DNA of 64,000 bases from Gemmatimonadales bacterium (GTDB lineage Bacteria > Gemmatimonadota > Gemmatimonadetes > Gemmatimonadales > GWC2-71-9), in NCBI GenBank assembly GCA_038321865.1, contig JBBQFH010000002.1, positions 32,001 through 96,000 of the forward strand, written 5' to 3'. The notes beneath the pieces were generated by a model. That model saw only the letters and a list, made by a program, of their open reading frames with translations, made no database searches and was not told the origin of the DNA. A program made the position numbers and the translations under genes. Below, in pieces: positions 6,867 through 24,822 of the stretch (positions within the stretch are counted from its first letter, which is position 1; each line of letters begins with the position of its first letter).

Positions 6867-6941
6867 TGGGCGAAGAGGGATTCGAACCCCCGACATCCTG
6901 CGTGTAAGGCAGGCGCTCTGAACCAGCTGAGCTATTCGCCC
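6867..6941 (-). tRNA. tRNA-Val(TAC)
   Basis: Reverse complement GGGCGAATAGCTCAGCTGGTTCAGAGCGCCTGCCTTACACGCAGGATGTCGGGGGTTCGAATCCCTCTTCGCCCA forms a cloverleaf. Confidence 0.96.
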
Positions 6942-7014
6942 GGTCGTGTTGGAGTGGCGACAGCCCGAATATGACGGCAATGCATGCGCCGTGCCGTGGC
7001 GCGCGTCACGCCAG

Positions 7015-7206: not shown

Positions 7207-7220
7207 AGCGGTAGAGGCTA

Positions 7221-8105
7221 CTACGGTACCCGACCCGGGTCAAGTTCCGGCGGCGCCTCATCTTCGCTCGGAATCACCCACCCCTCATCCAGCGCGGCAC
7301 GGCGGGGCCCGTCCGCCCGGCGGCGGATTCCGCCGAGCGCCAGCACCAGCGTCGCAATGACGCTCCAGACGCCGCCGGCGGCGATCCAGGTCGCCAGCCC
7401 ATACCGGCGCCGCACCGTTCCCATCCAGTCGCGAGCGAACTGTCCCACGTTGAGGCCCGTCGTCTGCCGCAGGGCGTCCTCAAACGGAACACCAGCTTCC
7501 AGGCGGGCCATCAGCGGGTCCAGCTTGCGGGTGGGATTGAGCTCGGCCAGCCGGGCCACCGCGGCCATGGAGAGCGCGTAGGCCGGACCGGCGGCGCCCT
7601 CATTCCCCCGCAGCTCGCCATCGAGGTCGTCCAGCTCGGGGACGCCGCCACGCGCGACCGACAAGTTGAGCGACAGTGCCGCGAGGCGATCCCATTCGCC
7701 GGCCGCCCACGCGGCGTAGCCTTCGTCGAACCAGCGCGGCACGCGCACCCGCACCGCGCCATGCAGTACAAGGTGAGCGAGCTCATGCCGCAGGGTTCGT
7801 TCGAGATCTCCCACATCGGCACGAAGCAGGATGGTGTGGGCCCCGGGCATCGCGATGCCGGCGCCCCACGTGGGCGCGCGTCCCCCGGTCATTTGCCGGT
7901 ATCGGGCCGCATCAGGGACCAGGATGAGCCGCATCGGCCCCGCCGAGCGGCGACCCAGACCGGGCCAGTATGCGGCCTGGTCCGCCGCTTCGGCCAGCGA
8001 CGCAGCCATGCCGAGCTGCGGGGGCCACGCGACCGCCACCACGTCGCCGACTCGCACCACGCGCGGAGGCGTCTGAGCAAACAGCAGGACGAATGCTACG
8101 AAAAC
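7221..8105 (-). CDS. Membrane-anchored zinc metallopeptidase (peptidase MA-like); start uncertain
   Basis: HELAH (HExxH) followed by PRWFDEGYA, a C-terminal TM, and a hydrophobic N-terminal stretch VFVAFVLLFAQ. No clean ATG/GTG at that point; the ORF is open to 8243. Confidence 0.7.
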   Translation of the reverse strand, partial: VFVAFVLLFAQTPPRVVRVGDVVAVAWPPQLGMAASLAEAADQAAYWPGLGRRSAGPMRLILVPDAARYRQMTGGRAPTWGAGIAMPGAHTILLRADVGDLERTLRHELAHLVLHGAVRVRVPRWFDEGYAAWAAGEWDRLAALSLNLSVARGGVPELDDLDGELRGNEGAAGPAYALSMAAVARLAELNPTRKLDPLMARLEAGVPFEDALRQTTGLNVGQFARDWMGTVRRRYGLATWIAAGGVWSVIATLVLALGGIRRRADGPRRAALDEGWVIPSEDEAPPELDPGRVP

Positions 8106-8974
8106 CGAGTACGCGGGATCTCTCCACCCGAAGCCGCCAGGGCGACGAGCTCGCCGCAGCGCCTGGCCCAGGGGTTGAACTTGTTGGCCTTCTGCCCGTC
8201 GGTCCACGTCTGAACGGCGCCAGCCCGATCGCCGGCGAGCCACTGCGCCCCACCCAGCTGCAGGTACGCCTCGATCAGGTTGGGGCCGAGCCGAAGCGTC
8301 TTCCGGAAAAAGCTCTGCGCATCGTCGTACATGTCGCGCTCGAGGTACACCAGCCCAAGATAATAATGTGCGTAGAGGGTGGCCTTGCGGTCGTTGTCGA
8401 GCCGGATGGCCTTGGAGAGGTGCTCGATCGCTTCGCCGAAGATTCGCTTCTTCAGGCAGATGTAGCCGACGTTGATTCGGGCCAGGGCGTTTGCGGGCTC
8501 ATTCATCAGCACCTTGGAAAAGGTGCCCAGCGCATCGTCGTACTCCTCATGCAGCATCTGCGCCCACCCGAGCAGCGACAGCGCTTCCACCGCGCCGGGC
8601 GACAGCTCCAGCGCCCGCGAGAGCACCTGTATCGCGCCGGCATGGTCGCCGAGAGAAATGAGGCTCCAGCCCTTCTCGATGAAGGTCGACGCTCCGATAT
8701 GATCATCGTGCACCACCGGCCGGGCATCCGTAAATGCGGGAGCCTGCGCAGTCGCGGCTGACGCCGAGACCTGCTTGTAGCGGTCCACCAGCAGACGGAT
8801 GTCTTCCTTGAGCTGCGTAACCTCCGCCAGCGCCGTATCGACTTTCTTGAAGAACGCGATGATCTCCCGCTTGGCCGCGTCGCGCCCCGATGCGTCGGCC
8901 GCGGCATCGAGCCGCGATGCGATCGTCGCGTATTCGCTCCTGAGCGGTGCCGTCAGCGACTCGTCTGCCGTCAT
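8096..8974 (-). CDS. Coiled-coil plus TPR protein
   Basis: Start MTADESL overlaps the cheW stop (ATGA); about 5 TPR repeats (KGWSLISLGD, LGWAQM, NVGYICLKK, YYLGLVY). Confidence 0.85.
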   Translation of the reverse strand: MTADESLTAPLRSEYATIASRLDAAADASGRDAAKREIIAFFKKVDTALAEVTQLKEDIRLLVDRYKQVSASAATAQAPAFTDARPVVHDDHIGASTFIEKGWSLISLGDHAGAIQVLSRALELSPGAVEALSLLGWAQMLHEEYDDALGTFSKVLMNEPANALARINVGYICLKKRIFGEAIEHLSKAIRLDNDRKATLYAHYYLGLVYLERDMYDDAQSFFRKTLRLGPNLIEAYLQLGGAQWLAGDRAGAVQTWTDGQKANKFNPWARRCGELVALAASGGEIPRTRFS

Positions 8975-9435
8975 GTCACTACTGCCGCTTCGAGGGCCTG
9001 CCGCTCCGTCGAGCTGAGGAGCCGGAGCGCGTTCAGCAGAACCACGGCCCGATCCCCTTCCGTGAGGATCCCGGCGATGTACGTCGCGGCCAGGCCGCGG
9101 ACCATGGGAGGCGGCGCGGTGATCGTGGTGCTGTCCACCCGCATCACCTCGCGGACCTGGTCGACCAGCATGCCGATGCGCTGCCCGTCGAGATTGAGGA
9201 CCATGAGGCGGGTTTCCTCCGTTACTCCGGCCTCCAGCTCGAGCCGCTTCCGGAGATCCACCACCGGAATCGCCGTTCCGGCGTAGCGAACGACGCCCTC
9301 GAGAAACGCCGGTGCCTTGGGCAGCGCCGACGGCTTCTCGTAGCGCAGGATGCGCTCCACCTGGGAAATATCGAGCGCGAACTCCTGCGAGCCCACGCGG
9401 AACGTGACCACCTGCATGTCGTCGCCAGTGTTCAT
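8971..9435 (-). CDS. cheW: Chemotaxis coupling protein CheW
   Basis: VVTFRVGSQEFALDISQVERI...FLEGVV...IPVVDLRKRL...IGMLVDQVREV. Confidence 0.93.
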   Translation of the reverse strand: MNTGDDMQVVTFRVGSQEFALDISQVERILRYEKPSALPKAPAFLEGVVRYAGTAIPVVDLRKRLELEAGVTEETRLMVLNLDGQRIGMLVDQVREVMRVDSTTITAPPPMVRGLAATYIAGILTEGDRAVVLLNALRLLSSTERQALEAAVVT

Positions 9436-9860
9436 GTGTCGATTCCCCTTTCCGCGAGCCGCGCACCAAGCGCAGTGAGATCAAGCAGGGGCACCAGTCC
9501 GTCCGCGCGCCGGACGACCGCGCGCGCCCAGGGAAGGGCGGAGCTCGGCGGGAGCGGCAGCGTCGCCTCCCGCACGACCACGTCCGCCTCCTCGACCTCG
9601 AGACAGAGCCGGATACCGCCAACCGAGATGACCACCGCGACCTCACTCACCCGGGGTGGGTACGCCTCGCCGGCCAGCAGGGCGCCGAGGTGAAGCACCG
9701 GCATCATTTCTCCCCGCACGTTCGCCACGCCGCGGAGCGCGGCCTCCGTGCTCGGAACCGGGTGCGCCGGGCCAGCGTCCGCGACCGCGACGACCTGCTC
9801 CACCGGAAGGCCGACCAGGCGACCTCCGGCGCGCACGAGCAGGAAGGACGCCTCGCTCAT
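9432..9860 (-). CDS. cheW: CheW-like protein
   Basis: [10 protein letters not shown]...PVP...[17 protein letters not shown] pattern; more divergent. Confidence 0.85.
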
Positions 9861-10939
9861 CGTGACGCCAGCGCGGCAAGCGCCACCTGTATCTGCGCCG
9901 CCATGTCGCGGATCGACGCCACACGGTCGGCTCCGCCGGCCTGGGCCGCAGCGTTGGGCATGCCGTATACGGTGGAGCTTTCACGATCCTGCGCCAGCCC
10001 GAATCCGCCGGCATCGTGGATTGCCTTCAGTCCGTCGGCCCCGTCACGCCCGAGACCGGTAAGCACCACCCCGATCGCACCGGGGCCGAACGCAACGGCT
10101 ACCGAGCGGAACAGGGGGTCGGCCGCGGGTCGGACCCCCCAGAGCGTGGGGCCACGATCGAGCACGAGGCACAGACCGCCGTCCACCGCCGGCATGACCT
10201 GCATGTGAAAATCACCTGGTGCCACGTACGCGGTGTCCGCCAGCAGCGGCGTCCGATCCTCGGCCTCCACCACCGCGAGGCGACTCTGCGAGGCCAGCCG
10301 CTCGGCGAGGCTTCGTGTGAACTTCGGCGGCATGTGCTGGACGATCACGACCGCCGCGCCGCTGCCGAGCTGGAGGCGCGGAACCACTTCGGCGAGTGCG
10401 CGCGGGCCGCCGGTGGATGCGGCGATCGCCACGCAGAACCGCGCGCGTCCCGGCAAGGCGAACAACCGCTCGGGCGGCGCGTCGCTCCGCCCCGGGCGGG
10501 CCAGCACCGGCAGTCGGTGAATGTTGGCTTCGCTCGCGCCTCGAAGCGCCGCGAGGACCCGCTCGCCGAGGCGATGCGAGGCCTCTGCGCCGCGATCATC
10601 CTCCTTGGCGACCAGGTCCACGGCACCAAGCTCCAGTGCCCGAATGGCCCCGGCGGTCCCGGGTCCCGCGTAGGCACTGACCACGACGATGGGGCGCGGC
10701 GACTCCGACATGATGTAGCCGATCGCGCCCAGCCCGTCGAGCTCAGGCATCTCCAGGTCCATCAGCACGAGGTCGGGCGCAAGGCGATGCACCTTCTGGA
10801 GCGCGTCCATCCCGTTCCGCGCCGTGCCGGCGAGCGCGAACTCCGCAGACCCGGTGACGGCATCGCCGAGGACGTGGCGGAAGAAAGGACTGTCGTCCAC
10901 CACGAGGACGGTGCGGCGCTCAGAGTGACTGGATCCCAT
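9857..10939 (-). CDS. cheB: Protein-glutamate methylesterase CheB (REC + esterase)
   Basis: REC domain (VVDDS, MDLEMP); catalytic ASTGGP, QHMP and [13 protein letters not shown]. Confidence 0.96.
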
Positions 10940-11402
10940 GCGCCACCGAAGACACCTCGAGCCGGCCGTCCGCGACGTACAGCCGCACCGTCCGGCCGTA
11001 GTCGCCGCCGACTGACTCGCCCACCAGCGGAATGCCGTTGACATTGAGGACGTGCCGCGTCGCTACGACGTTGCGTTCTCCCATCTGGATGGCGCCATGG
11101 GGAGCGAGGTTCGCGAACATGCTGGCGCCTCCAGCGATGCGGGCGACGGTCCGCTTCGGATTGGCCCCGCCTTCGACCATGAGCGCCAGGAGCCGGGGCA
11201 CGGCCAGCTGGGGAAACTTGGCCGGATTATCCGCGTTCCGGCTGAGCGCCGGCGAGGGCAGAAGTATGTGAGCCAGGCCGCCGATCCGCGCGCTCGCATC
11301 ATGCAACGCGATCGCGACACAGCTGCCCAGCCCGACCGTGACGAGGACGTCGCCGGCGGTCCCGACATTCAGATCAGCGACCCGTACGATGATGTCGGTC
11401 AC
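10920..11402 (-). CDS. cheD: Chemoreceptor glutamine deamidase CheD
   Basis: [34 protein letters not shown]. Confidence 0.95.
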
Positions 11403-12220
11403 GCCGCGCGCCGATAAATGCGTTCCCGGGCATCCACCAGGTGGAGCCGATCCCGGGCCGGGCCGAGCAGCGTCTCGACCTTGCCCAGGACGAGGACACC
11501 GCCCGGAGAGAGCCGTGAAGCGAACGTGAGGAAAAGCCGCTCCTGCATCGGGCGATCGAAGTAGATCACAACATTCCGGCAGAGAATGAGGTCATAGGCC
11601 GGGCGAAGCGGCGGGTCGGCCCCGAGATCCAGGCGGCTGACCGTGACGCGGCGGATTAGCTCAGGCACCACACGATATCCTTCGGTTTCCGGCACGAGAT
11701 AACGCGCGGCCAGGTCGGCCGGGAGCTCGGTAATGGCGTCCGGGCGGTAGCGCGCGCTGACGGCGCGCTCCAGACTGGCGCGATCCACGTCGGTGGCGTC
11801 AATCTCCAGCCGGTCCAGCCGCTCGGCGTGCCCCGCGGCACGATCGGCCTCCGCGACGAGCATCGCCACCGTGTAGGCCTCTTCACCCGAAGCGCAGCCG
11901 GCGCTCCACGCTGCGATACGACCCTCGCGTGCGGCGACCAGCTCAGGCACGATCGAGCCGCGGAGCAGGTCCCAGGTTTCGCGGTTGCGGTAGAATCGAG
12001 TCACGTTGATGGTGAGCGCGTCACGCAGCCGCTCGCACTCCGGCGGCACGCGTTGGAGTACCGCGAGGTAATCCGTGTATGTGTGTACTCCGCAGGCGCG
12101 CATGCGCACGGCGATCCGCCGACGCAAACATTTGTCCTTGTAGACGTCGGGCGTGAGCCCGGCCGCGTCGGTGATCCGCCGCGAGAGGGCGGCGGTCAGC
12201 GCGTCGTCGGCGGCCGTCAC
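11399..12220 (-). CDS. cheR: Chemotaxis methyltransferase CheR
   Basis: TINVTRFYRN, WSAGCASGEEAY, ATDVD, DLILCRNVVIYFD. Confidence 0.96.
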   Translation of the reverse strand: MTAADDALTAALSRRITDAAGLTPDVYKDKCLRRRIAVRMRACGVHTYTDYLAVLQRVPPECERLRDALTINVTRFYRNRETWDLLRGSIVPELVAAREGRIAAWSAGCASGEEAYTVAMLVAEADRAAGHAERLDRLEIDATDVDRASLERAVSARYRPDAITELPADLAARYLVPETEGYRVVPELIRRVTVSRLDLGADPPLRPAYDLILCRNVVIYFDRPMQERLFLTFASRLSPGGVLVLGKVETLLGPARDRLHLVDARERIYRRAA

Positions 12221-13836
12221 GATTGCCGATCCAGCATGTCGAGATTGGCCCGCGCGAGCTGATGCCCTGGGTTCAGCTCGGTCGCGCGCTGCCAGCTCGT
12301 CCGGGCCCGGGCGGGGTCCCGCCGCTTGAACGCGATGTTGCCCATCTTGAAATACAGGTCATCGCCGAGATCCGGCGCGAGACGCGCCGCGCGCTCGTAG
12401 GCCTCGAACGCCTCATCGTAGCGCCCGCCCCGGTACAGCAGGTCGGCGAGATTCTTCGAGGTCTGCGGCAGCGATGCGTCTTCGGCCAGCGCGGAGCGCA
12501 GCATGATCTCCGCCGCGGCCACGTCACCGCCGAGCTCCAGCAGCACGCCGAGATTGTTCCGCAACACGGGCTCGGCCACGTGGGCCTCGACGCCGGCGCG
12601 CGCCAGGGCAACGGCCGAGTCCGCATCATCGCAACCCGCGGCGGCGAGCGTGGCGGCCCAGAACCACAGCGGCGGGGGCGTCCGGTCGCCATGCAGTTCG
12701 CGGGCGCGGGTCAACCGTGCCTGGGCGGTCTGAAAGTCACCGCGCTTGAGCGCCACCACGCTCCAGCCGGTCTGGATCCGGGCATCGTCGCGCGCGCGCC
12801 CGGCGGCTTCGCCGTACGCGGCTTCGGCCTCGTCAAGCCGCCCAAGCTGCTCGAGCGCGAACGCCAGGTTATGCAGCGCTGCCGGACGCGGGCCGCCGCG
12901 CTCGACCGCCTGCCGCAATGCATCCGCCGCCGCCTGCCACCGCGCCTGGCGAAGCGCGATGAGCCCCAGAAAGAACGGTGCCGTTCCCTCGGACGGCCGC
13001 AGATCGGCCACGCGCCGGAACTCCCGCAGCGCCTCGTCCAGCATGCCGGTCTTGTAGAACGCGATCCCGAGATTTCGATGCTCCTCGATCCTGCTGTCAT
13101 TCATCTTGGGCACCGCGGCCGCCGCCGATGAGCCGGCACGGTGGGCGAACCCTGCCGCAATCAGCCCGTAGAGCGCCTTGCCGACCTCGAACTCCACCAG
13201 CCCGGAATCTTCGACGACCTGCTGCACGTCGCGGGTTCCGTCCAGCAGCGGAAGCAGCCGCTGCTGGACGGCCGAGAGACTGACGCCGGCGGATTCCATG
13301 TGCGTCCGGTCAAGCGAAAAAATCAGGTCAAAGGAAGGAATCTTTTTGGCGATCAGGCTCCACTCGTCCACCCGGCGCGCGCCTTCGAGGAGCAGCGACT
13401 CGGCGTTGATCTGGACCAGGAAGTCTTCCCGTTCCGGCCGAACGCCCGCCTCGAAATTGAACGTCCCGCTCGACCAGGTGAACAGGTAGTACACGGCCTC
13501 CTCGATCTGGAGTCGCATGTACTCCTCGAGTGCCGCCCGTGGCAGCGCTCCCGACTCCACGAGCAGTTCTCCGAGCTTCCGCTCGCGGTCGACGCTCTGC
13601 GCCTGGACCGCCTCCTCGAGCTGTGCCGCGCTGATGCGGCCGCTCTTGACCAGGATATCTCCCAGCCGGTCACGCCGATTCACGATGGAGGCGTAGGAAA
13701 TACGCCCGGCATCGAAGTAGACGTAGCCGAAGTTCTGCCGGTCAGCCACGGCGAGGCAGCCGGTTCGGCGCCCCAATGTCAGCAGCTGAATGACATCCGG
13801 AAGGCTGGCCTCCTTGAGACTGCCCTTGATCGCCAT
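12217..13836 (-). CDS. DUF4388 + tandem MshEN-like motif + TPR protein
   Basis: GSLKEASLPDVIQLL...TGCL and LFTWSSGTFNF (DUF4388); RLGDILVKSG...KLGELLVESG; C-terminal TPRs. Start overlaps the upstream stop (TGATG). Confidence 0.85.
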   Translation of the reverse strand: MAIKGSLKEASLPDVIQLLTLGRRTGCLAVADRQNFGYVYFDAGRISYASIVNRRDRLGDILVKSGRISAAQLEEAVQAQSVDRERKLGELLVESGALPRAALEEYMRLQIEEAVYYLFTWSSGTFNFEAGVRPEREDFLVQINAESLLLEGARRVDEWSLIAKKIPSFDLIFSLDRTHMESAGVSLSAVQQRLLPLLDGTRDVQQVVEDSGLVEFEVGKALYGLIAAGFAHRAGSSAAAAVPKMNDSRIEEHRNLGIAFYKTGMLDEALREFRRVADLRPSEGTAPFFLGLIALRQARWQAAADALRQAVERGGPRPAALHNLAFALEQLGRLDEAEAAYGEAAGRARDDARIQTGWSVVALKRGDFQTAQARLTRARELHGDRTPPPLWFWAATLAAAGCDDADSAVALARAGVEAHVAEPVLRNNLGVLLELGGDVAAAEIMLRSALAEDASLPQTSKNLADLLYRGGRYDEAFEAYERAARLAPDLGDDLYFKMGNIAFKRRDPARARTSWQRATELNPGHQLARANLDMLDRQS

Positions 13837-15827
13837 CAGCGCCACTCCTCGATCAGGCGGGCGGCGACGTCGGGCCAGTCCCAGACCATCTTTTCCCGGC
13901 TGCGAATGCCGCCGGCCGTCGGTGCGAGCACGCCGCTGGACCGGGAGCCCGTCCGCCTGGGCGCGCGGATGACGGGGCCTTCGAGTACTTCACGTGCGAG
14001 CGCGGCTGTCGGGTGGGCCTGCTGCGCTTCGGCCGCGTTCAGCACCCGCTGGACCAGGCCGAGCGCGCTGCGCATCGAGTCGGCCGGCCGGGCGGCGATG
14101 TACGCGGCGAGCTCGGGATCCACACCATCGAGCCGCGCCCCCAGCAGCCGCTCGATGGCTCGCTGGCGCAGCTCCCGATCGGGTGCGGGGAGGTCCACCA
14201 CCAGACCACCCTCGAGCCTGGTCAGCAGCCGCGGCTCGACCCCGGTCAACTCCGCCAGCGGGAGCGCGCACGAGAAGACCATCTGCCTGCCCTGCTCCAG
14301 CAGGTGGTTGAACAGGAGGAACAGCTCGTCCTGGCTCCGGTCCTTGCCGGCGATGAGGTGGACATCATCAAGGAGGAGCGCATCCACCTTCCGGTACCGG
14401 GCGCGCCAGAGCGGAACGGCATTGCGATCGATCGCGGAGATCAGCTCCTCGATGAACTCGCTGGTGCCGAGGCAAGCCACGGTGCCTGCCGGTGCCAGCG
14501 CATTCCCGAGGCCATGCAGCAGATGTGTCTTGCCATTACCGCTCGCACCCACGATGACGAGCGGATTGTACTTCGCACCAGGCTCAGCGGCGACGGCCGT
14601 GGCGGCGCGTACGGCCATCCGGTTGGATCCGCTCTCCAGGACGTCGCCAAGCCTCCAGTGCGGCGACGGTCCCGGGGGGGCCGCCGCACCGGCCTGCGCC
14701 CGCTCCAGCAGCCCCGCCGCCGCCGCCACATCATCCGGATCCTGCAGCAGCGCCGACCCAGCGAGCTCGGGCGCGATGCTCGCGAGCTCGTCGGCGATCG
14801 AGCGAAGGCGGTTGACATCGGCCTCGAACGCTCTCAATGCTGCGTCGGGATCCGCGAGTGCGTCGTCGTTGAGCAGCGCGGCCAGCCGCGCGACGCGATA
14901 GCCCTCCCCTTCCCATCGCACCATGGCCTCGCCCACCCGCGAGCGCCACGACTCGACCTGGTGGGTGACCGTCGCGGACACCTCGAGCAGGAAATCGGCG
15001 AACTCGTCCCGCTCCTCCGGCGCCTCCGCTGGCGCGGGCTCCCTCTGCTCCGGCGACGGGTGCGGTGCTTCCGGCAGGGCGTTGGCCAGGCGAACGGCAT
15101 CGGGCGCGTCACGACCGCCCACGAGGAGGCGCGCCTGGCCGGCGTCGAGGAGATCAGGGCTGATCGCCTGGTAGGCGATGAGGCGGTTCAGCGCTCCGAT
15201 GAGCTCCCGGACGTTGTCGATGTCCACCGAGGCGACGGCTTCGAGCACGCCGGCGCCGAAGGCCGCACCGCGTGCTTCCGCCCGGCGCCGGAGAATGGCG
15301 ACCCGCGTCTCATAGTCGGGTGCCGAAATGTCGATCACGAGGCCGCCCGCAAAACGGCGAATCAGCCGTTCGTCGAGCGCCTCGATTTCCGACGGTGGAC
15401 GATCGCTGGTGAGCACGATCTGACGGCCCCCGCGCTGCAGCGTATCCACCAGTCGGAGCAGTTCCGCCTGCATCTCGCGTCGCTGACTCAGAAATTGCAC
15501 ATCGTCGAGCAGCAACAGCTGGGTGTCCGCGAATCGGTGGCGATACGCATCGCCCTGGCCGCCGGCCACGGCGGCATTGACCGCCTCGACCAGCTCGTCG
15601 AGCGTCAGGTATTCCACCGCCAGGCGGGGATCGATCGCGCGAGCGGCGTGACCGATCGCCATGAGCAGATGGGTCTTCCCCAGCCCCGGCCCTGCGTAGA
15701 TGAACAGCGGGTTGTAGCCGCTGCCCGGGGCCTCGGCCACGGCATGTGCCGCCGTCGCCGCCAGGCGATTCGAGGCGCCCACGACGAGTGTCTCGAAGCG
15801 GAATTGCTCCGGCAGCGCTCTGGTCAC
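13836..15827 (-). CDS. DnaA/Hda-family protein with two tandem DnaA-type AAA+ domains and no DNA-binding domain IV
   Basis: Two copies of SNR...YNPL...GKTHLL...LLLDDV...RLxxR(F/L)xGGLV; GTG start overlaps the mglA stop. Confidence 0.88.
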
Positions 15828-16426
15828 TCGGCGACACCCCCGACGGCGAGCTTCCGAAGCACCAGCTCGGAGATCCCCTTCAGCGTCTCGAAGACGCCGC
15901 TTCCGTGCAGTGCATCGGCCGTGAAGCACTGTACGCCGCGAAAATTGAGGGCGTCGTCAAGCTCTTCCCGATTCAGCACCAGATCCGCCGGAAGGTCCTG
16001 CTTGTTGTACTGAAAGACGACCGGGAGCTGCCGCACGTCGACGCCCTGATCAAGAAGGTTCTCCTGCAGATTCTGCAGGCTCTCCAGGTTGTCCTCGAAC
16101 CGCCTCGCCTGACTGTCGGCCACGAACACCACGCCATCCGCGCCCTGCAGCACCAGCTTTCGGGTCGCGTTGTAGTAGCTCTGCCCTGGCACGGTATAAA
16201 GCTGAAAGCGCGTCGCGAACCCGGAAATCGAGCCGAGATCGATCGGCAGAAAGTCGAAGAACAGCGTGCGGTCGCCGTGGGTGGCCAGTGATACCATGCG
16301 CCCGCGCCGGGTCTCGGGAACGCGGCCGAAGATGTACTGCAGGTTAGTCGTCTTGCCCGACCGTCCCGGCCCGTAATAGACGATCTTGCAGGTGATTTCA
16401 CGCGCCGTGAAATTCACGAGAGACAT
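15824..16426 (-). CDS. mglA: Small Ras-like GTPase MglA
   Basis: [43 protein letters not shown] and QYNKQD match Myxococcus/Thermus MglA motifs, including the catalytic Arg and Gln. Confidence 0.95.
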
Positions 16427-16429
16427 GGG

Positions 16430-16891
16430 TTACCGTCCGAAGAGCGCGCGAAGGCTCGCATTGAGGTCGTGCTCGAAGTTTTCTGCCAGGACCGGGCCAT
16501 GCGGCTCCGCCGGAGGTGCCGCCGCACCGATTTCCTCGGCAAACTGCTGGAAGAAGAGCTGGACGAGCCCGACCGAGGTGTCCGGGCCGAACACGACCAG
16601 GCCGATCCAGCGGCCGCGGGGCGTATCGAATCCGCTCAGCAGCATCCCCTGCTCCGCACCCTGGTGGACCAGCACGCCGAACCGTGGCGATCCCATGATG
16701 CGCGCCAGCTCCGCCGTCGACGCCATGATCGCGGCCCCGAGCGCGGCGGCGGACATGACATCGACCGAACGGGTGAAGCCGTGCTGGGCCACGACCTGTC
16801 CGGAAGTCGTCATGAGCAGGACAAGTCGGGCCGCCGATTCGTCGAGAAATCGCTCCAGTGGAGCGCCGACCCAACTTTCCAGCACTCGCAT
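16430..16891 (-). CDS. mglB: MglB-like Roadblock/LC7 protein (probable GAP)
   Basis: LLMTTSGQVVAQHG...LVVFGPDTSVGLVQL with an MglB-type C-terminal helix (DLNASLRALF); directly upstream of mglA. Confidence 0.8.
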   Translation of the reverse strand: MRVLESWVGAPLERFLDESAARLVLLMTTSGQVVAQHGFTRSVDVMSAAALGAAIMASTAELARIMGSPRFGVLVHQGAEQGMLLSGFDTPRGRWIGLVVFGPDTSVGLVQLFFQQFAEEIGAAAPPAEPHGPVLAENFEHDLNASLRALFGR

Positions 16892-17238
16892 CAGCCGAGC
16901 ACCCGGGCCGCTTCGAGCAGCTCCAGACGGGCCAGGCCCACGTTCGCCCCGCGGTCGGCGACCGCGACCACGAGCATGTCGTTGGGCGCAGGCACGGCCA
17001 GCAGCACTCCCTCCTCCCCGCGCAGATGCACCACACCGGGAACACCAAGGCCTGCGCTCGTGGTAGCGCGGCGGAGCCGGGCGCACAGGCTGGCGGCGAG
17101 CGCGGCAACCGCACGCCCATCCACATCCTCCATGGACACGTCGGCCACCACCAGGCCGTCGGAGGCGGATACCAGCATGACCCCGCGAATCCCCCGGACC
17201 GCGCTCACCCGGCGAAGCGCCTGCTCGTGCTGGCTCAT
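16891..17238 (-). CDS. Roadblock/LC7 domain protein
   Basis: VRGIRGVMLVSASDGLVVA...AVAALAASL...ANVGLARLEL, a typical Roadblock pattern. Confidence 0.88.
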   Translation of the reverse strand: MSQHEQALRRVSAVRGIRGVMLVSASDGLVVADVSMEDVDGRAVAALAASLCARLRRATTSAGLGVPGVVHLRGEEGVLLAVPAPNDMLVVAVADRGANVGLARLELLEAARVLG

Positions 17239-18104
17239 GAGAGTCCCTCGAGCCATCGGCGAGCGGCCTGTGCCGCGCGGTCTGCCAGCAAAGCCAGCCG
17301 GCCGGCCGGCACCCCGATGTCGCGCACAGTGAGCAGCACCGTCTCCGGAGTGGGCGCCACCAGGTGCATGTTGCCGTCAGGACACTCCACCGACACGCTC
17401 TGCCAGGCGCCGAGGCCGAGCAGTCGTCCGGCGCGGGCGGCCTCGCGGGACACACCGGCAAGATGGGCCGCGACAGTGTCGGCGACATCGGTGCCATCGC
17501 CATCCCGCAGGCCGCCGCCGAGCCGCAGGCCATGCTGATCGAGCAGCAGGAGCCCATCGCGCGCGCCTTCGAGTCCGGCAAAGAGCTCGGCATCATCGGG
17601 CAGCGACGAATCGACGTCCAGCGAGAAGGGCATCGGGGGCGATGCAGTCGCCACGCTGTCCTCCGCGCGCGGCTGCGTCTGCGGCGGGACCGGTTCCGGA
17701 GCGGTCGAGGCGGCGCGCATGCGCAGGATCGCGGCGGCGAGGCCGGCATCAGCCGCCGCACCCGCGGCGGCGGCTTCGAGGTGCCGAAGCGCACGGGGCG
17801 CGTCGCCGGCCCGATAGTAGAGAAAGCCGAGGCCCTTGTGCGCACTGCGATCAGCCGGGTCGAGGCGCAGCGCCGTCATCCAGCCGTCGAACGCCGCATC
17901 GCCATGGCCGGCATCGGCCAGGATCCGCGCGTGCAGCGAATGCGCCTCCGCCATGTCCGGGTATCGTGCCAGCCCGTTCGCCGCGACCGTCAATGCCGGC
18001 CCCAGCTGGCCGCGTTGCCGCAACAACTCGGCCAGGTCGAGAAAGGCGAGACTCGACCCGTCGGCGGCGAGCTGTGCGGTCAGCGTCCGGACGTCGTCAC
18101 TCAT
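17235..18104 (-). CDS. TPR-Roadblock fusion protein
   Basis: N-terminal TPRs, a Pro-rich linker, and a C-terminal Roadblock-like domain (GLLLLDQHGL...VAAHLAGVS...VPAGRL). Confidence 0.8.
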   Translation of the reverse strand: MSDDVRTLTAQLAADGSSLAFLDLAELLRQRGQLGPALTVAANGLARYPDMAEAHSLHARILADAGHGDAAFDGWMTALRLDPADRSAHKGLGFLYYRAGDAPRALRHLEAAAAGAAADAGLAAAILRMRAASTAPEPVPPQTQPRAEDSVATASPPMPFSLDVDSSLPDDAELFAGLEGARDGLLLLDQHGLRLGGGLRDGDGTDVADTVAAHLAGVSREAARAGRLLGLGAWQSVSVECPDGNMHLVAPTPETVLLTVRDIGVPAGRLALLADRAAQAARRWLEGLS

Positions 18105-19245
18105 GCGCCGTCCGGGTTCCTTCCACAAGCGTCATCGCCGCGGCACGGAGGCGGCTCACCGACCCACCCAATGCATCCTCGGCCGGTGGTCTCGCATCCA
18201 GGCGGCTCCACGCATCCCAGGACTCCACGGCCTGCTCCAGCTGGCCGGCCCTCGCCTGGCACACGCCGAGCATCCTTCGCGCGGGAGCCAGCATCGGATC
18301 GATCCGCAGGGACTCCTGAAATGCATCCCCCGCTTCACCGTGCCGCCCGGAGGCGAGCAGGGCGCGTCCAAGCGTGACATGAGCCTCCGCATGGTCGGGC
18401 CGCGCCGCGACGACGTCGAGTGCGGCCACGCGAGCCGCCTCCGGATCTCCGGCGGCGAGCGCCGTCCGGGCGCGGAGCAGCAGCTCGTTCAGCTCGGCCC
18501 CGATCGGCGCGGGCGCCAGGGCGCGGCGTGGGTCATCCAGGACGATGACCCCGGCGGCGGCGAGGCCGAAGAGCGTCCGCGCGATTTCGAAATCCGAGCG
18601 CCCGACCGCAGCCGCGACGCCGTGTACATCGCGGGTGCCGTCGACGGCGCCAAGCACTTGCCATTCCGCCGGCAACAGATCAAGCCGTGTGGTGCCGCCG
18701 GCATCCGGCGGCACCAGCTCCGGCACCATCCCCAGATGCGGAATCCGGCTCTCGATGCGCGCCCACTCGTCGATCCGCCGCGCAGCCTCCATCAGCAGCG
18801 CCTCGGTGGGGATGCGCACCTGGCCGGGCCCGGAAGGCGCCGGCGGCGTTTCCGAGAAGGAGAAGTAGCCTTCGGACCAGCTCATGAGCTCGAAGATTAC
18901 CTCCTCGACCTGCGCCCGTGCCTGACGTTCCAGCTCCCGGCGGCCGACCGCACCCATGGCGAGCAGGATGTCGCCGAGGCGCCGGCCGTCGCCCCCCTCC
19001 TGCATCGCCAGGGCCCTCGCAAAATCCTCCTCGCTCAGCTTGCCGCTTCGCAACAACAGCGTCCCCAGCGGATGCGGATTGGTGCGGATCTCGGCCGCGA
19101 CCACCCCGCCCTGCTCGAACTGCACGGTTCCGGCGTTCTGCCTGAGGTCCGACGTGATCCGCAGCGTGCCGGTCTTCCGCGCCAGATCGAGCAGCTGGAA
19201 GACATCGTGAATCGACAGCTCCTTGAGCGGGCCTTCGATCGGCAT
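18097..19245 (-). CDS. DUF4388 + tandem MshEN-like motif + TPR protein (paralog of 12217-13836)
   Basis: GPLKELSIHDVFQLL...KTGTL, LMSWSEGYFSF, LLMEAARRIDEW; RLGDILLAMG; C-terminal TPRs. Confidence 0.85.
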   Translation of the reverse strand: MPIEGPLKELSIHDVFQLLDLARKTGTLRITSDLRQNAGTVQFEQGGVVAAEIRTNPHPLGTLLLRSGKLSEEDFARALAMQEGGDGRRLGDILLAMGAVGRRELERQARAQVEEVIFELMSWSEGYFSFSETPPAPSGPGQVRIPTEALLMEAARRIDEWARIESRIPHLGMVPELVPPDAGGTTRLDLLPAEWQVLGAVDGTRDVHGVAAAVGRSDFEIARTLFGLAAAGVIVLDDPRRALAPAPIGAELNELLLRARTALAAGDPEAARVAALDVVAARPDHAEAHVTLGRALLASGRHGEAGDAFQESLRIDPMLAPARRMLGVCQARAGQLEQAVESWDAWSRLDARPPAEDALGGSVSRLRAAAMTLVEGTRTAHE

Positions 19246-19247
19246 GG

Positions 19248-21917
19248 CTAGCCCGCCGTCGTGGCGAAGATGTGCTGCAGGTCGCGCGCGGATCGCGCGC
19301 GGGCGCGGGCCTGCGCGGCGAGATCTCCGGCGGGTTCGAGCTGCACCACTCGGTCCCAGGCCGTGACCGCGTCAGCGAAATGGCGTTCCCGTGCAAGGGC
19401 GACGCCCCGATGGAAGAGCGCGGCAGCGTCATTCGGGTCGAACCGGAGTACCCGGTCGAACGCCTCGAGTGCGCAGCTCGTCCGGCCGTCCTCGAGCAGG
19501 ATCCGCCCGAGGAGCGTCAGGGCCGCCAATTCGTAGGGGTCCACCGAAAGTGTCCGCACCAGGACGTCGATGCCCGCGCTCGCGGATTCGGTCCGGGCGA
19601 GGAGGTCCGCCAGCGCCATGGCGGCATCGGTGAAGGTCGGGAGCAGCTGGAGCGCCCGCTCGTACGCTGCGCGCGCGGCCGCCCAGTTGGCCCGTGCCTC
19701 TTCCAGGCCGCCGAGCTCGTACCAGACCTGCACCAGCGAACCGTCGAGTTGCAGCGCCACCTGGCAGGCCTCGAGCGCAGCGTCGATGTCGCCGAGTTGG
19801 CCGGCGATCACCGCCTGGAGCTGGTACAGATCGGGCCGGCCGGGCGCCGCGCGCTGGGCCGCGCGCACTGCGGCCATGGCGGCGGCCGCGTCGCCGGTCG
19901 CGTGGAGCACGCGCGCATGGGCCAGCAGCACGTCCGCATCACCGGGTGCGCGCCGAGCAAGCGCTCCCGCGACTTCGACCGCCTCGCTCGCACGGCCAAG
20001 CGCCACCAGACTGCGTATCTCGCCCAAGGCGGGTCCCAGCTCGCCCGGCGCAGCCGCGCGCGCTTCGGCAAAGCGCTCGAGGGCTTCGCCATGCAGGCCC
20101 CGCCGGGCGAAGATGGCGCCCCAGAGCGCTGCCGCATGTGCCGGTGTCACGCCCCGGCCACGCAAGCGCTCAAGCTCGGCGGCGGCAAGCTCCAGCAGCC
20201 CCTTGGCCACGTAGTCGCGCGCCAGCGCCAGCGGGTCGGGTTCGTGCGGTTCGACCACGTCCGCCCGTGCCGGCGCCAGCTCGTCGAACAGCCGATCGAG
20301 CGCCGTCGGATCGAAGGCGAACTCGCCGGCGAGCGTCGAACCGCTGAGCTCCGCCTTCAGTGCCGGTGCCACGGCGATGGTCGGATCCTCGAACTGAAGG
20401 TCGATTGCCAGCACGTATTTCTGGGGCACGTAGTACGGCTCCAGCTCGAGCGCCTGTTTAGTGGCCCTCAGCGCCGCATCGAAGTCGCCCAGCTGGCTCA
20501 ACGTAAAGCTCAGGTTGTAGTGCGCCGCCGCCAGCGTGGGGTCCGCTTCCACCGCGCGGCCAAAGGCGTTCCTTGCATCGGAAAACCGCTTGAGCTCCAT
20601 CAGCACGAGCCCCACTCCATTCCACGCGATGGCGCTGCCGGGAACCTCCGCGAGTACACGCCGATACCCCTCCAGCGCCTGCTGGATCTCCTGCCGCTGG
20701 AAATGCAGCAGCGCCAGGTTGAGGCGGGCGGTGAGCGGCGGCCGCGTGCCCTGCGTTGCACGGCGGAAGGCCTCAAGGGCGGCGGCGTCCGCCGGATTCT
20801 GGGCCCGGAGGACGCCCAGATTGTTCCAGGCCAGCGCGTAGGCCGGGTCGAGATCGACCGAGCGCGCGTACGACGCCGCGGCCTGGTCCAGCCGGCCGAC
20901 CTGATGCAGGCAGACGCCGCGTTCGTTCCAGAGCTTCGGCGAATCACCAAACTGCTGCACCAGCGTCTCGTAGAGCTCGAGCGCCGCGGCGAGGTCATGC
21001 CGCAGCAGCTGGACCTCGGCCATCGCCTGCAAGGCGTGTCGCCGATCGTCACCGGCATCCAGCGCCAGCCGGTACTCACGCAACGCCTCGGCGTAGTAGC
21101 CCTTCTGCCGGAACGCCAGGCCGAGCGCGAAGTGCGCCAGGGCGCCGTGTCTCACGACCTTCGGCCCCTCCGCGGCGGGCTGCCGCGCCGGCTCCGGCTG
21201 ACCGAGAGCGAGGTTGGCCTGGGCGCGGGCGAGCAGCGGGTTCAGCTCGATGGCGCGCCTGGCGGAGCTTCGGGCCGCTTCCTGGTCACCGATGTCGCCG
21301 TACACGAAGGCAAGCAGGTAATGCGCGTCGGCGTATTCCGGATTGCGGGCAATTGCGGCCTGAAGCGCCGTGCGCGCAGGCTCGTTGAGGCCGCGATTGT
21401 AGAGCGCTTCGCCATAGGCGAAGAGGGCGACGGGGCTCTCGGGATCGCGTTGGCACGCCTGACGAAACCATTCGACCGCCGCGTCGATGTTGCCGCGCGC
21501 CTTCTCCGCGAGCCCGATCTGCACCAGCGCCGCCGCATCGCCCGGCTCCGCCGCCAGCAGCGCCTCGAACTCGTGCACGGCCTCGTCGTGGTGCCCCAGC
21601 GCGGCGTAGGCACGGCCCAGCTCCCAGCGCGCGTCGCGGTCGCGCGGAGAGCTCCGGAGCCGCTCCCGCAGCTCTGCCACGCGGCGGTCGTAGTGCCCGT
21701 TCTCCCGGTAGGCGAGCTCCAGGTTGGTCTGGGCCACCTGCATCTTCGGATCGAGCTCGAGCGCGCGCGCGAAACCAGCCACGGCCTCTGCGATGAGGCC
21801 CTTCTGGTAGTAGAGCACGCCGAGATTGTTGTGCGCGCCGGCGTCGGACGGATCGATCCGGGTGGCGAACGACCGGAGCGCGGCGAGATCGCGCTCGGAA
21901 AGCACGGGGGCCGGCAT
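19248..21917 (-). CDS. Large multi-TPR scaffold protein (889 aa)
   Basis: Many TPR units (AHNNLGVLYY, AWNNLGV, AHYNL, VWYELG); start re-picked at MPAPVLS. Confidence 0.88.
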   Translation of the reverse strand: MPAPVLSERDLAALRSFATRIDPSDAGAHNNLGVLYYQKGLIAEAVAGFARALELDPKMQVAQTNLELAYRENGHYDRRVAELRERLRSSPRDRDARWELGRAYAALGHHDEAVHEFEALLAAEPGDAAALVQIGLAEKARGNIDAAVEWFRQACQRDPESPVALFAYGEALYNRGLNEPARTALQAAIARNPEYADAHYLLAFVYGDIGDQEAARSSARRAIELNPLLARAQANLALGQPEPARQPAAEGPKVVRHGALAHFALGLAFRQKGYYAEALREYRLALDAGDDRRHALQAMAEVQLLRHDLAAALELYETLVQQFGDSPKLWNERGVCLHQVGRLDQAAASYARSVDLDPAYALAWNNLGVLRAQNPADAAALEAFRRATQGTRPPLTARLNLALLHFQRQEIQQALEGYRRVLAEVPGSAIAWNGVGLVLMELKRFSDARNAFGRAVEADPTLAAAHYNLSFTLSQLGDFDAALRATKQALELEPYYVPQKYVLAIDLQFEDPTIAVAPALKAELSGSTLAGEFAFDPTALDRLFDELAPARADVVEPHEPDPLALARDYVAKGLLELAAAELERLRGRGVTPAHAAALWGAIFARRGLHGEALERFAEARAAAPGELGPALGEIRSLVALGRASEAVEVAGALARRAPGDADVLLAHARVLHATGDAAAAMAAVRAAQRAAPGRPDLYQLQAVIAGQLGDIDAALEACQVALQLDGSLVQVWYELGGLEEARANWAAARAAYERALQLLPTFTDAAMALADLLARTESASAGIDVLVRTLSVDPYELAALTLLGRILLEDGRTSCALEAFDRVLRFDPNDAAALFHRGVALARERHFADAVTAWDRVVQLEPAGDLAAQARARARSARDLQHIFATTAG

Positions 21918-21921: not shown

Positions 21922-22542
21922 TTACGGCAGGCGGATCGCGTCGAAAATGGCGCGCAGCGATGGCATGTCTGGCAGCAGCAGGAAATGTCCTTCGAGCTGT
22001 TCACTGGCGCCGCCGACGTGGAAGGCCGTCTCCACGCAGAAGACGAAGTCGCGCTCGTGGCCGAAGTTCAGGTACGTCGTGGTGAGAATCGCCGCCGACT
22101 GGTCAATGACGAGACTCGGCACCGACGGAACCAGCATCATTCCCATGAAGTCGCTGAGCGCGTTCATGTACGCGCTGACCAGAATGTTGCCGACCTCCTT
22201 CAGGCCCGACTGTTCCATTTCGCCGAAGGCGGTCGTCGTGCCGCGGGCGCGCCCCAGCAGCATGTCACAGACTGCGAGCGCTGACTCTTCGGGAAACAGC
22301 ACGAGCGTGCGCCCGGTCAGGTCGCCCATCATCTGCATCAGCACCGCGGCGATCACCGCATCCGGCGGGCCCAGGAGATCGGTGACCTCCTCGAGCGGCC
22401 GGACATTGATCTCGGGCACGCTGATCATGATCTTCTGATTGGTCATCTGCGACAGCGCGGTCGCCGCGTGGCCCGCCCCGATATTGGCGACCTCGCGCAG
22501 CGCGTCCAGCTGCAGCTCCTTCAATCCGCGGGCGTCGTCCAT
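21922..22542 (-). CDS. cheC: CheY-P phosphatase CheC
   Basis: Two ExxN active-site motifs: DALREVANIGAGHAATALS and SGLKEVGNIL. Confidence 0.94.
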   Translation of the reverse strand: MDDARGLKELQLDALREVANIGAGHAATALSQMTNQKIMISVPEINVRPLEEVTDLLGPPDAVIAAVLMQMMGDLTGRTLVLFPEESALAVCDMLLGRARGTTTAFGEMEQSGLKEVGNILVSAYMNALSDFMGMMLVPSVPSLVIDQSAAILTTTYLNFGHERDFVFCVETAFHVGGASEQLEGHFLLLPDMPSLRAIFDAIRLP

Positions 22543-22555
22543 TCGCTCCTCGCTC

Positions 22556-24400
22556 CTACAACAGTGCGGCCGCGTCCAGAATGAGCGCGGGCGACCCGTC
22601 CGCCAGAATCGTCGCCCCGCCGAAGAATGACGGCATGCCAAGCGGCGCGTCGAACGGTTCCACCACGATGTCCTGCTGGCCAAGCAGCGCGTCGACCACC
22701 AGCGCCGCCCGGCGATCACCAACCTCGAGGATCACGGTGGGACGCCGAACTGGGGGCGGTCCCCCGCGCAGCGCGACCAGGTCACGAAGATGCACAGTCG
22801 GGATGGCCTGATCGCGCACCACCAGCGCCTCCCGGTCGCGTACCGCGGTGACGGCACGGCCGTCGAACTCCACCGTCTCCGCCACGTAGGCGAGCGGAAT
22901 GGCATAGCGTTCGGCGCCCACGGACGTCAGCAGCGCCCGGACAATGGCGAGCGTAAGCGGGACACGCACCACAAACGTCGTACCCTGCCCCGCCACCGAC
23001 TCGATCGCCAGCGTGCCGCCCAGCGTCCGTACCCGGGTCGCCACGACATCCACGCCGACGCCGCGGCCGGACACGCCGCTCACCTGTGTGGCGGTGCTGA
23101 ACCCCGGCCGGGCGAGGGTCTTGAGCAGGCTGTCGTCTGTCAGCGCCTCGACCGCCGCGTCGAGAATCCCTTCCTGCCGGGCCTTCGCCAGAATGGCGGC
23201 CCGATCGATGCCTCGGCCGTCATCGGAGACCCGGATGGCCACGCTATTCCGTTCCCGCGCCGCCGACAGCAGGATCCGACCCTGCGGCGGCTTGCCGGCG
23301 GCCACCCTCGTCTCCGGCGTTTCCAGCCCGTGGTCCATCGCATTCCGGATGAGGTGCAGGAGCGGATCGCCGATTTCGTCGAGAATCGCACGGTCGAGCT
23401 CGATCCCTTCGCCCTCGATTTCGAACCGCACCTGCTTCCCCAGGTCGCGGGACAGATCCCGCACCAGTCGCGGAAACCGGTCGAACACTTCTCCGACCGG
23501 CGTCATCCGGGCCTGAATGACCTCCACCTGCAGATCGGTGACCAGCCGGGCGATCCGCTCCGTGACGGTCTCCAGCTCCGGCGCCGCGCCAGTCCGCACC
23601 AGATCGACGAGGCGGTTCCGCGCCACGACCAGCTCACCGACCTGCTTCATCATGGTGTCGAGCCGGCGCAGGTCGACGCGGATCTGCCGGCCGCGCACAG
23701 TCGGCTCGGTACGCTCCGGCGCGATCTCGTCGAAGGTGATGCCGTCCACGTCACCGGCGGAGCGGATCGCGACCCTGACGTCCTCGTCCGATGCGGCGGA
23801 CTCGAGCCGGAAACTGAACTTCCCGTCGAAGTCTTCCCGTTCGAACGCTGCGGCCGCCGGCCGGAGCGCAGTCACCGTGCCCAGCTGCTCGGCCCGACGG
23901 AGCGCCAGCATCGCCCGGCCCCCTCGCATCTGCGCGCCGGCGCGGATCGCCACGCTCACCGCCCGCCCCGACGGCTGAATGAGGTGCACCGCAAATTCGG
24001 CTGTCTGCGCACTGACGAGGCCGCCGGCCGCGGCACGGTCGAGCGCGGTGATGAGGTCACCGTCCGCCGTATTCGCCGGTTGACCCGCGGCGGCTCGCTC
24101 GACGCCCCCTGCGATCTCGTCGACGGCGCCGAACAGCAGCTGGAACAGCTCCGGGGCGGCCGCGACCCGACCGGTCCGCAACGCGTCGAGCAGGTTCTCC
24201 GCGCTGTGGGCGACGCGGGCCACGCCCTCGTACCCCATGGTCGCCGCCATGCCCTTGATCGTGTGGATGGCCCGGAAGAGGCCGTCCACCGGCTCCGGAG
24301 CCGCCGGGTCACGCTCCCACTCGAGCAGACACTGATTGCACGCGGCGAGGTGCTCCCGGCTCTCAGCCAGGAAGAGCGCGGCGTACTTGGCAAGATCCAT
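22556..24400 (-). CDS. cheA: Chemotaxis histidine kinase CheA (Hpt-P2-dimerisation-HATPase-CheW)
   Basis: FRAIHTIKG, HLIRNAMDHG, DDGRGI, PGFSTA, SGRGVG, VPLTLAI. Confidence 0.97.
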   Translation of the reverse strand: MDLAKYAALFLAESREHLAACNQCLLEWERDPAAPEPVDGLFRAIHTIKGMAATMGYEGVARVAHSAENLLDALRTGRVAAAPELFQLLFGAVDEIAGGVERAAAGQPANTADGDLITALDRAAAGGLVSAQTAEFAVHLIQPSGRAVSVAIRAGAQMRGGRAMLALRRAEQLGTVTALRPAAAAFEREDFDGKFSFRLESAASDEDVRVAIRSAGDVDGITFDEIAPERTEPTVRGRQIRVDLRRLDTMMKQVGELVVARNRLVDLVRTGAAPELETVTERIARLVTDLQVEVIQARMTPVGEVFDRFPRLVRDLSRDLGKQVRFEIEGEGIELDRAILDEIGDPLLHLIRNAMDHGLETPETRVAAGKPPQGRILLSAARERNSVAIRVSDDGRGIDRAAILAKARQEGILDAAVEALTDDSLLKTLARPGFSTATQVSGVSGRGVGVDVVATRVRTLGGTLAIESVAGQGTTFVVRVPLTLAIVRALLTSVGAERYAIPLAYVAETVEFDGRAVTAVRDREALVVRDQAIPTVHLRDLVALRGGPPPVRRPTVILEVGDRRAALVVDALLGQQDIVVEPFDAPLGMPSFFGGATILADGSPALILDAAALL

Positions 24401-24404
24401 GGAG

Positions 24405-24767
24405 CTAGCCGAGGACGCGCTGAACGGCCTCGAGCACGCGGGATGGCTGGAACGGCTTGACGACGAAGTCCTTCGCACCGGCCTGAATGGCCTCGACGAC
24501 CAGGGCCTGCTGGCCCATGGCACTACACATCAGCACCTTTGCGTCGGGATCGCCTCGGCAGATTTCCCGCACCGCATCGATGCCGCCCATGTCGGGCATC
24601 ACGATATCCATGGTGTCGAGGTCGGGCTTGAGCTGGCGGTTCGTCTCGACCGCCTGCACGCCGGACTCGGCCTCGCCGACGATCTCGAATCCGGCCTGGC
24701 TCAGGATGTCGCTGATCATCGTGCGCATGAAGATGGCATCATCGCAGACGAGAACCGTATGACTCAC
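24405..24767 (-). CDS. cheY: Single-domain response regulator CheY (Bacillus/Thermotoga-like)
   Basis: GTG start with GGAGG RBS; DDAIFMR, MDIVMP, SAMGQQ, AKDFVVKPF. Confidence 0.94.
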   Translation of the reverse strand: MSHTVLVCDDAIFMRTMISDILSQAGFEIVGEAESGVQAVETNRQLKPDLDTMDIVMPDMGGIDAVREICRGDPDAKVLMCSAMGQQALVVEAIQAGAKDFVVKPFQPSRVLEAVQRVLG

Positions 24768-24822
24768 TAGCCCACCTCCGTGCGATTTCGTAGACGCGGG
24801 CCGGACGGCGCCGCGAGTGGAG

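Follow-up and report, generated by a model that had tools for sequence, protein, structure and literature searches.

In a DNA stretch of 64,000 nucleotides from a Gemmatimonadales bacterium (contig JBBQFH010000002.1, positions 32,001 to 96,000), in the following called the window, a gene located at 13836..15827 on the reverse strand encodes a protein of 663 amino acids (plus stop codon) with two tandem AAA+ domains of the type found in domain III of the replication initiator DnaA. This tandem protein is real and conserved. We consider it, by a modest preference, to be an adaptor which would dock on the product of the downstream gene, a protein with a PATAN (DUF4388) domain and tetratricopeptide repeats (TPR), in an MglA/type IV pilus pathway, the DnaA-derived cores probably serving as an optional ATP-gated module. 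Relatives have lost one or both ATPase copies and kept two short motifs; hence, a scaffold is most likely, and not a regulator of replication.

The protein starts with the first AAA+ domain (D1, residues 1-235; 15123..15827), followed by a variable proline-rich linker (residues 236-271; 15015..15122), a helical domain, termed HD (residues 272-381; 14685..15014), the second AAA+ domain (D2, residues 386-616; 13980..14672), and a C-terminal tail (residues 643-663; 13839..13901), all encoded on the reverse strand. HD contains a W-x-x-E-G-Y/F ... D-P-D unit. The two short motifs are located in the first helix of HD (residues 274-292; 14952..15008, reverse strand; D-E-F-x-D-F-L-x-E-V) and in the tail (E-K-x-x-W-x-W-P ... 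R-x-I-E-E).

Comparison of 150 representatives revealed a natural deletion series. The full arrangement D1-HD-D2-tail was found in 68 representatives, D1-HD-tail in 13, and D1-D2-tail in five; many others were fragments, and further forms lacked D2, the lid of D2, the lid of D1, or HD. In five genomes of other classes, a single-domain D1-tail form adjoins a gene encoding a TPR-only protein, and both helix 1 and PATAN are missing. The most extreme forms are mini-proteins of 55-70 amino acids consisting of helix 1 of HD and the tail without any AAA+ domain, which were found in six genomes of a second family, f2 (G031, G035, G075, G092, G094, and G132). Their open reading frames occupy the position of the tandem gene and end at or near the start of the partner gene. 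Comparison of the mini genes of G092 and G094 showed that all seven base changes are silent third-position changes leaving the protein identical; between G031 and G035, 10 silent and 28 changed codons were counted with the motifs kept. The loci of G092 and G094 contain neither mglA nor mglB, and mini forms also occur in otherwise complete che-mgl operons (loci L219 and L220). Five mini-proteins were tested on the partner tree and were nested among carriers of the full-length form, indicating secondary loss of the AAA+ domains.

Degeneration of the ATPase was also observed outside the phylum. Named genomes were scanned with four distant relatives as queries, and 55 loci were obtained, most of them titled WOR-3, TA06, Stahlbacteria, or unclassified. 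A DnaA-type box VII was unrecognisable in D2 of 49 rows, after five rows without a comparable D2 and one Gemmatimonadetes-titled row had been set aside, and Walker A of D1 was gone in 13 of the 55. In the partner, conservation is among the highest in the first TPR, which also applies to the TPR-only forms. From the deletion series as a whole, the tail emerges as the part kept most persistently in the bacterial forms, helix 1 as tracking PATAN, and ATPase chemistry as optional across the family.

The PATAN/TPR gene, and not mglA, is the most constant partner of the tandem gene. The order mglA, tandem gene, DUF4388-TPR gene was found in all 20 loci analyzed first (up to 20 kb each). A second set of 20 loci with greater divergence had mglA next to the tandem gene in 14, which brings the total to 34 of 40 Gemmatimonadota loci; in 19 of this set, the gene that followed encoded a DUF4388-TPR or a TPR-only protein, the remaining locus being a contig end. 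Of the 55 WOR-3-type loci, 49 have PATAN-TPR downstream (three others are contig ends) and 47 have mglA or mglB upstream; 23 contain a gene for a PilT/PilB-type ATPase. Sixty genomes were tested for the downstream partner: all 30 carriers had it next to the gene, and the same query found it in none of the 30 non-carriers. An MglA match was absent from three carriers and present in eight non-carriers. Furthermore, in G018 and G130, the che genes are missing from the locus and the Mgl-PATAN-tandem core is retained; in G134, che genes and adjacent mglA are gone, and the tandem, PATAN-TPR, and peptidase genes remain. One of two functions put forward in the original prediction, namely an initiator fold repurposed as a signalling scaffold, is thus supported by gene order, by co-occurrence, and by the natural deletions.

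We propose that the protein is an ancient, vertically inherited adaptor or scaffold of an operon for MglA, roadblock, PATAN/TPR, and chemosensory proteins, which most likely steers type IV pili. Its C-terminal tail would dock in the TPR region, and the first HD helix on the PATAN domain, of the PATAN-TPR protein encoded downstream. The DnaA-derived cores may form an optional ATP-gated assembly module, in which nucleotide would be bound in the pocket of D1 and the face with the arginine finger would come from D2. As output, the pilus motor would be placed at a pole or switched, with CheA/CheY, MglA-GTP, and possibly cyclic di-GMP (c-di-GMP) as input. At least two PilT-family genes were present in 41 of 41 carriers and in 10 of 30 non-carriers. 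A flagellar output was also considered and judged unlikely: only nine of 41 carriers, and 10 of 30 non-carriers, had FlhA, and no match to it was found in the host genome, which is 89.85% complete. PATAN domains are reported to bind PilB1/PilC, the pilus motor, in Synechocystis (10.1101/2021.06.11.447907), and MglA-GTP of Myxococcus acts on PilB via the TPR protein SgmX (PMC7519303 and PMC9811614). Group 1 MglA is listed in Gemmatimonadetes in PMC4316618, the main text of which mentions neither DUF4388 nor DnaA. Literature searches found no published account of the tandem protein.

Identity and limits of the gene were examined in the sequence. All motifs quoted in the original prediction were recovered in the 663-residue translation. 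The GTG start codon lies at a position common to relatives; it overlaps the stop codon of mglA (GTGA), and the tandem stop codon overlaps the start of the DUF4388 gene (TGATG), so that both predicted couplings are present. A Pfam scan revealed two Bac_DnaA stretches (292 bits) and no match to Bac_DnaA_C, as had been expected, nor any to DnaA_N (E ≤ 0.01 for both). Domain I and the domain II N-terminus are absent: the reading frame begins at domain III, in relatives as well. Domain IV with its helix-turn-helix is likewise absent, the predicted model ending in an unstructured tail. An N-terminal clamp-binding motif of the Hda type was correctly reported as missing; the AAA+ core is preceded by no more than 7-9 residues, which differ among relatives. 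The genome contains a canonical dnaA gene, encoding 458 amino acids, that provides the sole DnaA_C match and adjoins dnaN on another contig (C6). D1 and D2 share 34% identity over 209 amino acids; identity to the host DnaA is 44% for D1 and 37% for D2, each domain being closer to DnaA than to its sister. An assembly artefact as the source of the duplication was rejected because full-length orthologues occur in dozens of genomes.

The closest known structures are those of DnaA domain III (PF00308, TIGR00362; 8BV3/8BTG of B. subtilis, 2Z4R of T. maritima, and 1L8Q/2HCB/3R8F of A. aeolicus). The tandem protein shares with them the fold (root mean square deviation 1.4 Å over 233 columns to 8BV3), Walker A/B, the box VII arginines, and sensor II. 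It differs from DnaA by its two copies, HD, and tail, by the absence of domains I and IV, by its location in a signalling operon, and by AAA+ domains that are deletable; furthermore, D1 lacks AID-1 and the H motif and D2 lacks sensor I. The cut-off of TIGR00362 (343.9 bits) was passed with 420 bits only by summing two stretches, which may explain why such proteins are named DnaA in databases. With Hda (TIGR03420), the protein shares a DnaA-type AAA+ domain without DNA-binding domain and the arginine finger; unlike Hda, it has two domains and no N-terminal clamp segment, reaches 155.5 bits against a cut-off of 194.8, and carries GKT and DD at the positions of GRS and DN in E. coli Hda. Judged by the features tested, the protein is neither DnaA nor Hda.

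An AlphaFold2 model of the 663 residues was calculated from an alignment of 143 rows and showed a mean predicted local distance difference test (pLDDT) score of 89.8 and a predicted template modelling (pTM) score of 0.76, with low confidence at the C-terminus. In this model, both AAA+ domains carry the initiator-specific two-helix insertion after strand 2 (helices 76-88/92-100 and 455-467/471-479). A linker of about 150 amino acids had been predicted between them. The proline-rich stretch of about 35 residues was confirmed, with pLDDT below 50 at residues 250-275 and a mean column conservation of 0.21; the remainder (residues ~272-381) is instead predicted to be a well-folded helical domain, HD, which reached a pLDDT of 90.7 when folded alone. 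No Pfam family matched HD over cut-off, no Foldseek match was obtained at E ≤ 0.001, and a search of the Atlas with HD likewise gave nothing usable. The best structural comparison was with the spectrin-like repeat of the EzrA type (4UY3; Z 6.7, root mean square deviation 3.9, 114 aligned), which did not clearly exceed the background of helical bundles. The two AAA+ domains of the earlier architecture stood; overlooked was the conserved C-terminal tail, which has low confidence in the model and yet is conserved over its last 21 residues as highly as the ATPase cores (column conservation 0.63, as compared to 0.67 for D1 and 0.60 for D2).

Residues were audited against E. coli DnaA in 21 DnaA, 46 D1, and 41 D2 sequences (those recovered by the cutting rule), with residue roles as given in PMC5742627 and PMC8287927. 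In the host protein, Walker A/B, the box VII arginines, and the sensor II arginine are present in both domains as predicted (R154/R158 and R207 in D1, R533/R537 and R586 in D2). D1 retains a pocket of K51, T52, D108, D109, D142, and R207; its AID-1 (A100) and H motif (N84) are changed. D2 retains AID-1 R479, I463, and R497; its loss of sensor I, with Ala521 at the position of E. coli DnaA Asp269, had gone unmentioned in the original motif list. The same split was found across the family. D1 keeps the Walker A lysine in all 46 sequences, sensor I in 42, R281 in 42, R285 in 43, and sensor II in 44; it has lost AID-1 R227, which is present in 21 of 21 DnaA, and the hydrophobic H motif (H/Q/N at the E. 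coli V211 position), and has a glutamate at the B-motif position in 40 of 46. D2 keeps the Walker A lysine in 39 of 41, R227 in 36, I/V of the H motif in 33, R245 in 34, R281 and R285 in 39 each, and L290 in 40, and sensor I in only 14. R227, the hydrophobic H motif, and R245 are used by DnaA for oligomers and single-stranded DNA (PMC5742627 and PMC8287927). The B-motif arginine is a weak marker here because just four of the 21 DnaA proteins of the phylum have it. The distribution of kept residues suggests that D1 acts as nucleotide pocket and D2 as arginine-finger donor.

Several results weigh against a docking scaffold. A single origin of the mini-proteins was not rejected (p-AU 0.46 for one clade), so that the AAA+ domains may have been lost only once. 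The tails of WOR-3-type proteins are divergent, 29 of 50 scoring above the 95th percentile of other C-termini. PilT is near-universal (68 of 71 genomes), and the co-occurrence counts overstate the association because the genomes are related; many of those compared are also incomplete, and kin are not independent. Both AAA+ domains are about as well conserved in Gemmatimonadales as the tail (0.67 and 0.60 vs 0.63), which indicates that the cores are not passive there. Moreover, D2 retains R227, the hydrophobic H motif, and R245 (36, 33, and 34 of 41) and thereby the face used by DnaA for oligomers and single-stranded DNA; a contact with DnaA or DNA is thus possible in this lineage.

Other readings were considered, the strongest of which, clearly less probable than the scaffold, is an ATP switch as the main function in the host lineage. 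The D2 finger would close the ATP site of D1, within one chain or in a DnaA-like filament, gated by MglA or by the c-di-GMP motif of the PATAN protein; the tail would merely tether, and the mini-proteins would be degraded forms. Complementary retention fits such a switch, with sensor I (42/46) and sensor II (44/46) kept in a D1 devoid of AID-1, and AID-1 (36/41) and R285 (39/41) kept in a D2 with sensor I in 14/41. The pTM of 0.76 over 663 residues suggests a fixed domain arrangement; the MshEN-like insert was also lost in five of six partners of mini-proteins, and MshEN is fused to DnaA-type domains in proteins P0317 and P0318. A switch is less easily reconciled with WOR-3, where catalytic residues decay and the operon stays whole, with the frequent absence of the D2 lid or the entire D2, and with mini-proteins in otherwise complete che-mgl operons (L219, L220). 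That the protein is a decaying relic persisting as a passenger of the operon is hardly credible: domain loss is frequent and some copies sit on long branches, but of the 55 genomes in the host family, 54 have an intact gene, motif residues are invariant, changes between one pair of mini genes are silent only, and two phyla are involved.

Regulation of replication initiation, by a covalent DnaA pseudo-dimer capping or poisoning DnaA filaments or stimulating their ATP hydrolysis, was the other function originally proposed; we regard it as improbable and did not retain it as the function of the family. The closest structures are indeed DnaA domain III, D2 retains the finger face and H/B residues, and D1 and D2 are nearer to host DnaA than to one another. 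In the host lineage, such a role keeps a small probability because the D2 residues for oligomers and single-stranded DNA are retained. Against this stand the absence of domain IV and of a clamp motif together with the low Hda score, a gene remote from dnaA-dnaN, deletion of both AAA+ domains in six genomes, and loss of the D2 finger in WOR-3. The family is also missing from 30 of 120 genomes, all with dnaA, and the PATAN/TPR partner is steadier than mglA. Similarly remote is a coupling factor, in which D2 would bind DnaA or origin DNA and the tail hold the PATAN-TPR/MglA module, so that polarity or the placement of pili would be tied to the state of replication. The DnaA-facing residues of D2 and the tracking of the PATAN-TPR gene by tail and helix 1 would fit; D2, however, is the part most often truncated or lost, and its B-motif arginine, found in four of 21 DnaA proteins of the phylum, says little about DNA.

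Some form of the tandem family was found in 90 of 120 other Gemmatimonadota genomes: in 54 of 55 of the host family, 25 of 28 of family f2 (six of them mini forms), the single genome of family f3, five of 21 of other orders, and five of 15 of other classes. The 30 genomes without a family member all retain dnaA. For the phylogeny suggested in the original prediction, a quick tree was calculated from 87 of the 115 domains (28 rows left out). On it, one label change is needed for each of D1, D2, the single-domain forms, and DnaA, with supports of 56, 98, 90, and 73; some copies have long branches. D1 and D2 together form one clade (support 72), which is compatible with an internal duplication or two captures of dnaA. 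Each clusters largely by host family, which fits old vertical descent.

HD units were additionally detected in proteins labelled DUF835 or KaiC (162-233 bits, as compared to ≤5 bits in reversed or shuffled controls). These long HD-repeat proteins (P0344, P0350, P0353, P0361, P0379, and P0391-P0394) contain six to eight HD copies, several joined to one DnaA-type AAA+ domain; they differ from the tandem protein by this single near-canonical DnaA domain at the end, accompanied by zinc ribbons, and by having no tail. Their nearest Atlas cluster combines DnaA and DUF835 in Thermoplasmatota (score 0.93), which points to an archaeal origin. DUF835 is called an inactivated KaiC-like signalling domain in PMC5847659. 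A PATAN-like N-terminus of the long proteins was unsupported (hhalign probability 0.2%, E 0.34), and a metagenome scan by DnaA-motif patterns gave no HD match in 80 loci. Other architectures were observed as well. P0317 and P0318 (1.9-2.0 thousand amino acids) consist of MshEN, a DnaA domain, long helical repeats, and a second DnaA domain, without HD; like the long HD-repeat proteins, they are leads and not demonstrated orthologues. Two genomes that lack the operon encode an in-frame fusion of D1-HD with an ABC ATPase domain, which takes the place of D2 and tail (L121:9926-11752 and L130:1948-3768). P0314 has D1-HD-D2 followed by a response-regulator receiver domain, with no tail detected. Two domains of the DnaA type are also present in P0316, P0366, P0369, and P0288, some of which have no HD or tail; these proteins may stem from independent duplications. 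Tentatively, a DnaA core may have been recruited early, together with the HD unit, into a separate signalling family common to Gemmatimonadota, WOR-3, and probably Thermoplasmatota. It would polymerise in the manner of DnaA but without DNA, as a non-replicative, cytoskeleton-like polar scaffold gated by ATP and c-di-GMP that places PATAN/TPR and MglA modules; we hold this wider scenario to be rather doubtful.

The operon occupies 7221-25260 on the reverse strand. The DUF4388 (PATAN)-TPR gene (12217..13836) was assigned by Pfam; its product, the putative binding partner, exceeded the cut-off of the MshE-related c-di-GMP-binding model NF053729 (44.6 bits; cut-off 38). The mglA-type small GTPase gene (15824..16426; Arf 29.7 bits in Pfam, weak Ras) is named from its sequence and roadblock neighbours, with no NCBIfam match at 1e-8 and hence no dedicated model behind the label. 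Three roadblock/LC7 genes (MglB-like, roadblock, and TPR-roadblock; 16430..18101) and a second DUF4388-TPR gene (18097-19245) with a large TPR gene (together 18097..21917) follow, all recognized by Pfam. An RLG-type helical insert is present in both DUF4388 genes, and the downstream one passes the MshE-related model. The 5' block comprises cheW, cheY, cheA, and cheC (21922..25260; CheA and CheC by Pfam, cheY and cheW from the list of open reading frames), and the 3' block cheR, cheD, cheB, two cheW, a small TPR gene, and a peptidase MA-like gene (7221..12220; Pfam). The operon thus encodes CheA, CheB, CheC, CheD, CheR, CheY, and three CheW and no methyl-accepting chemotaxis protein; three genes for such receptors lie on other contigs of the host. 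The Peptidase_MA_2-like gene (7221-8243) ends the operon and stays with tandem gene and TPR partner in G134 and G050 despite the absence of che and adjacent mgl genes. Most Gemmatimonadales genomes tested carry a second mglA-like gene outside the operon, and WOR-3-type operons at L123-L129 and L132-L137 are flanked by efp, a PilT-type ATPase gene, pgpA, cinA, and recA. No sigma-70-like promoter was found in 7000-26500, and Rfam detected only tRNAs: tRNA-Asp, tRNA-Val, and two tRNA-Met at 4918-4992, 6867-6941, 42164-42233 (a weak copy, 30.9 bits), and 45441-45514.

Among known systems, the Myxococcus module of MglA/MglB, SgmX, FrzS, and Frz is similar in that type IV pili are acted upon by a small GTPase together with roadblock proteins, TPR proteins, and a che pathway. 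Unlike there, all parts are encoded in one operon of the host, the DnaA-derived protein included. The tandem gene is co-inherited with mglA, roadblock, and PATAN-TPR genes. FrzS is an earlier example of a signalling domain turned into a docking site for TPRs; it binds SgmX via its pseudo-receiver domain and not via a tail (PMC9811614). The constant neighbour of the tandem gene also shares PATAN with PatA-type regulators; it differs from them in being PATAN-TPR and not PATAN-REC. The available text of 10.1101/2021.06.11.447907 notes mglA/mglB genes near PATAN genes and names no DnaA-like partner.

The natural version of about 60 residues singles out the two motifs from the tandem protein. AAA+ domains of the DnaA type are familiar from replication, replication control, and transposition helpers. 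A copy fixed in a polarity and chemosensory operon across two phyla would represent a new role for this fold, and also an overlooked part of MglA-pilus signalling that is often named DnaA in databases.

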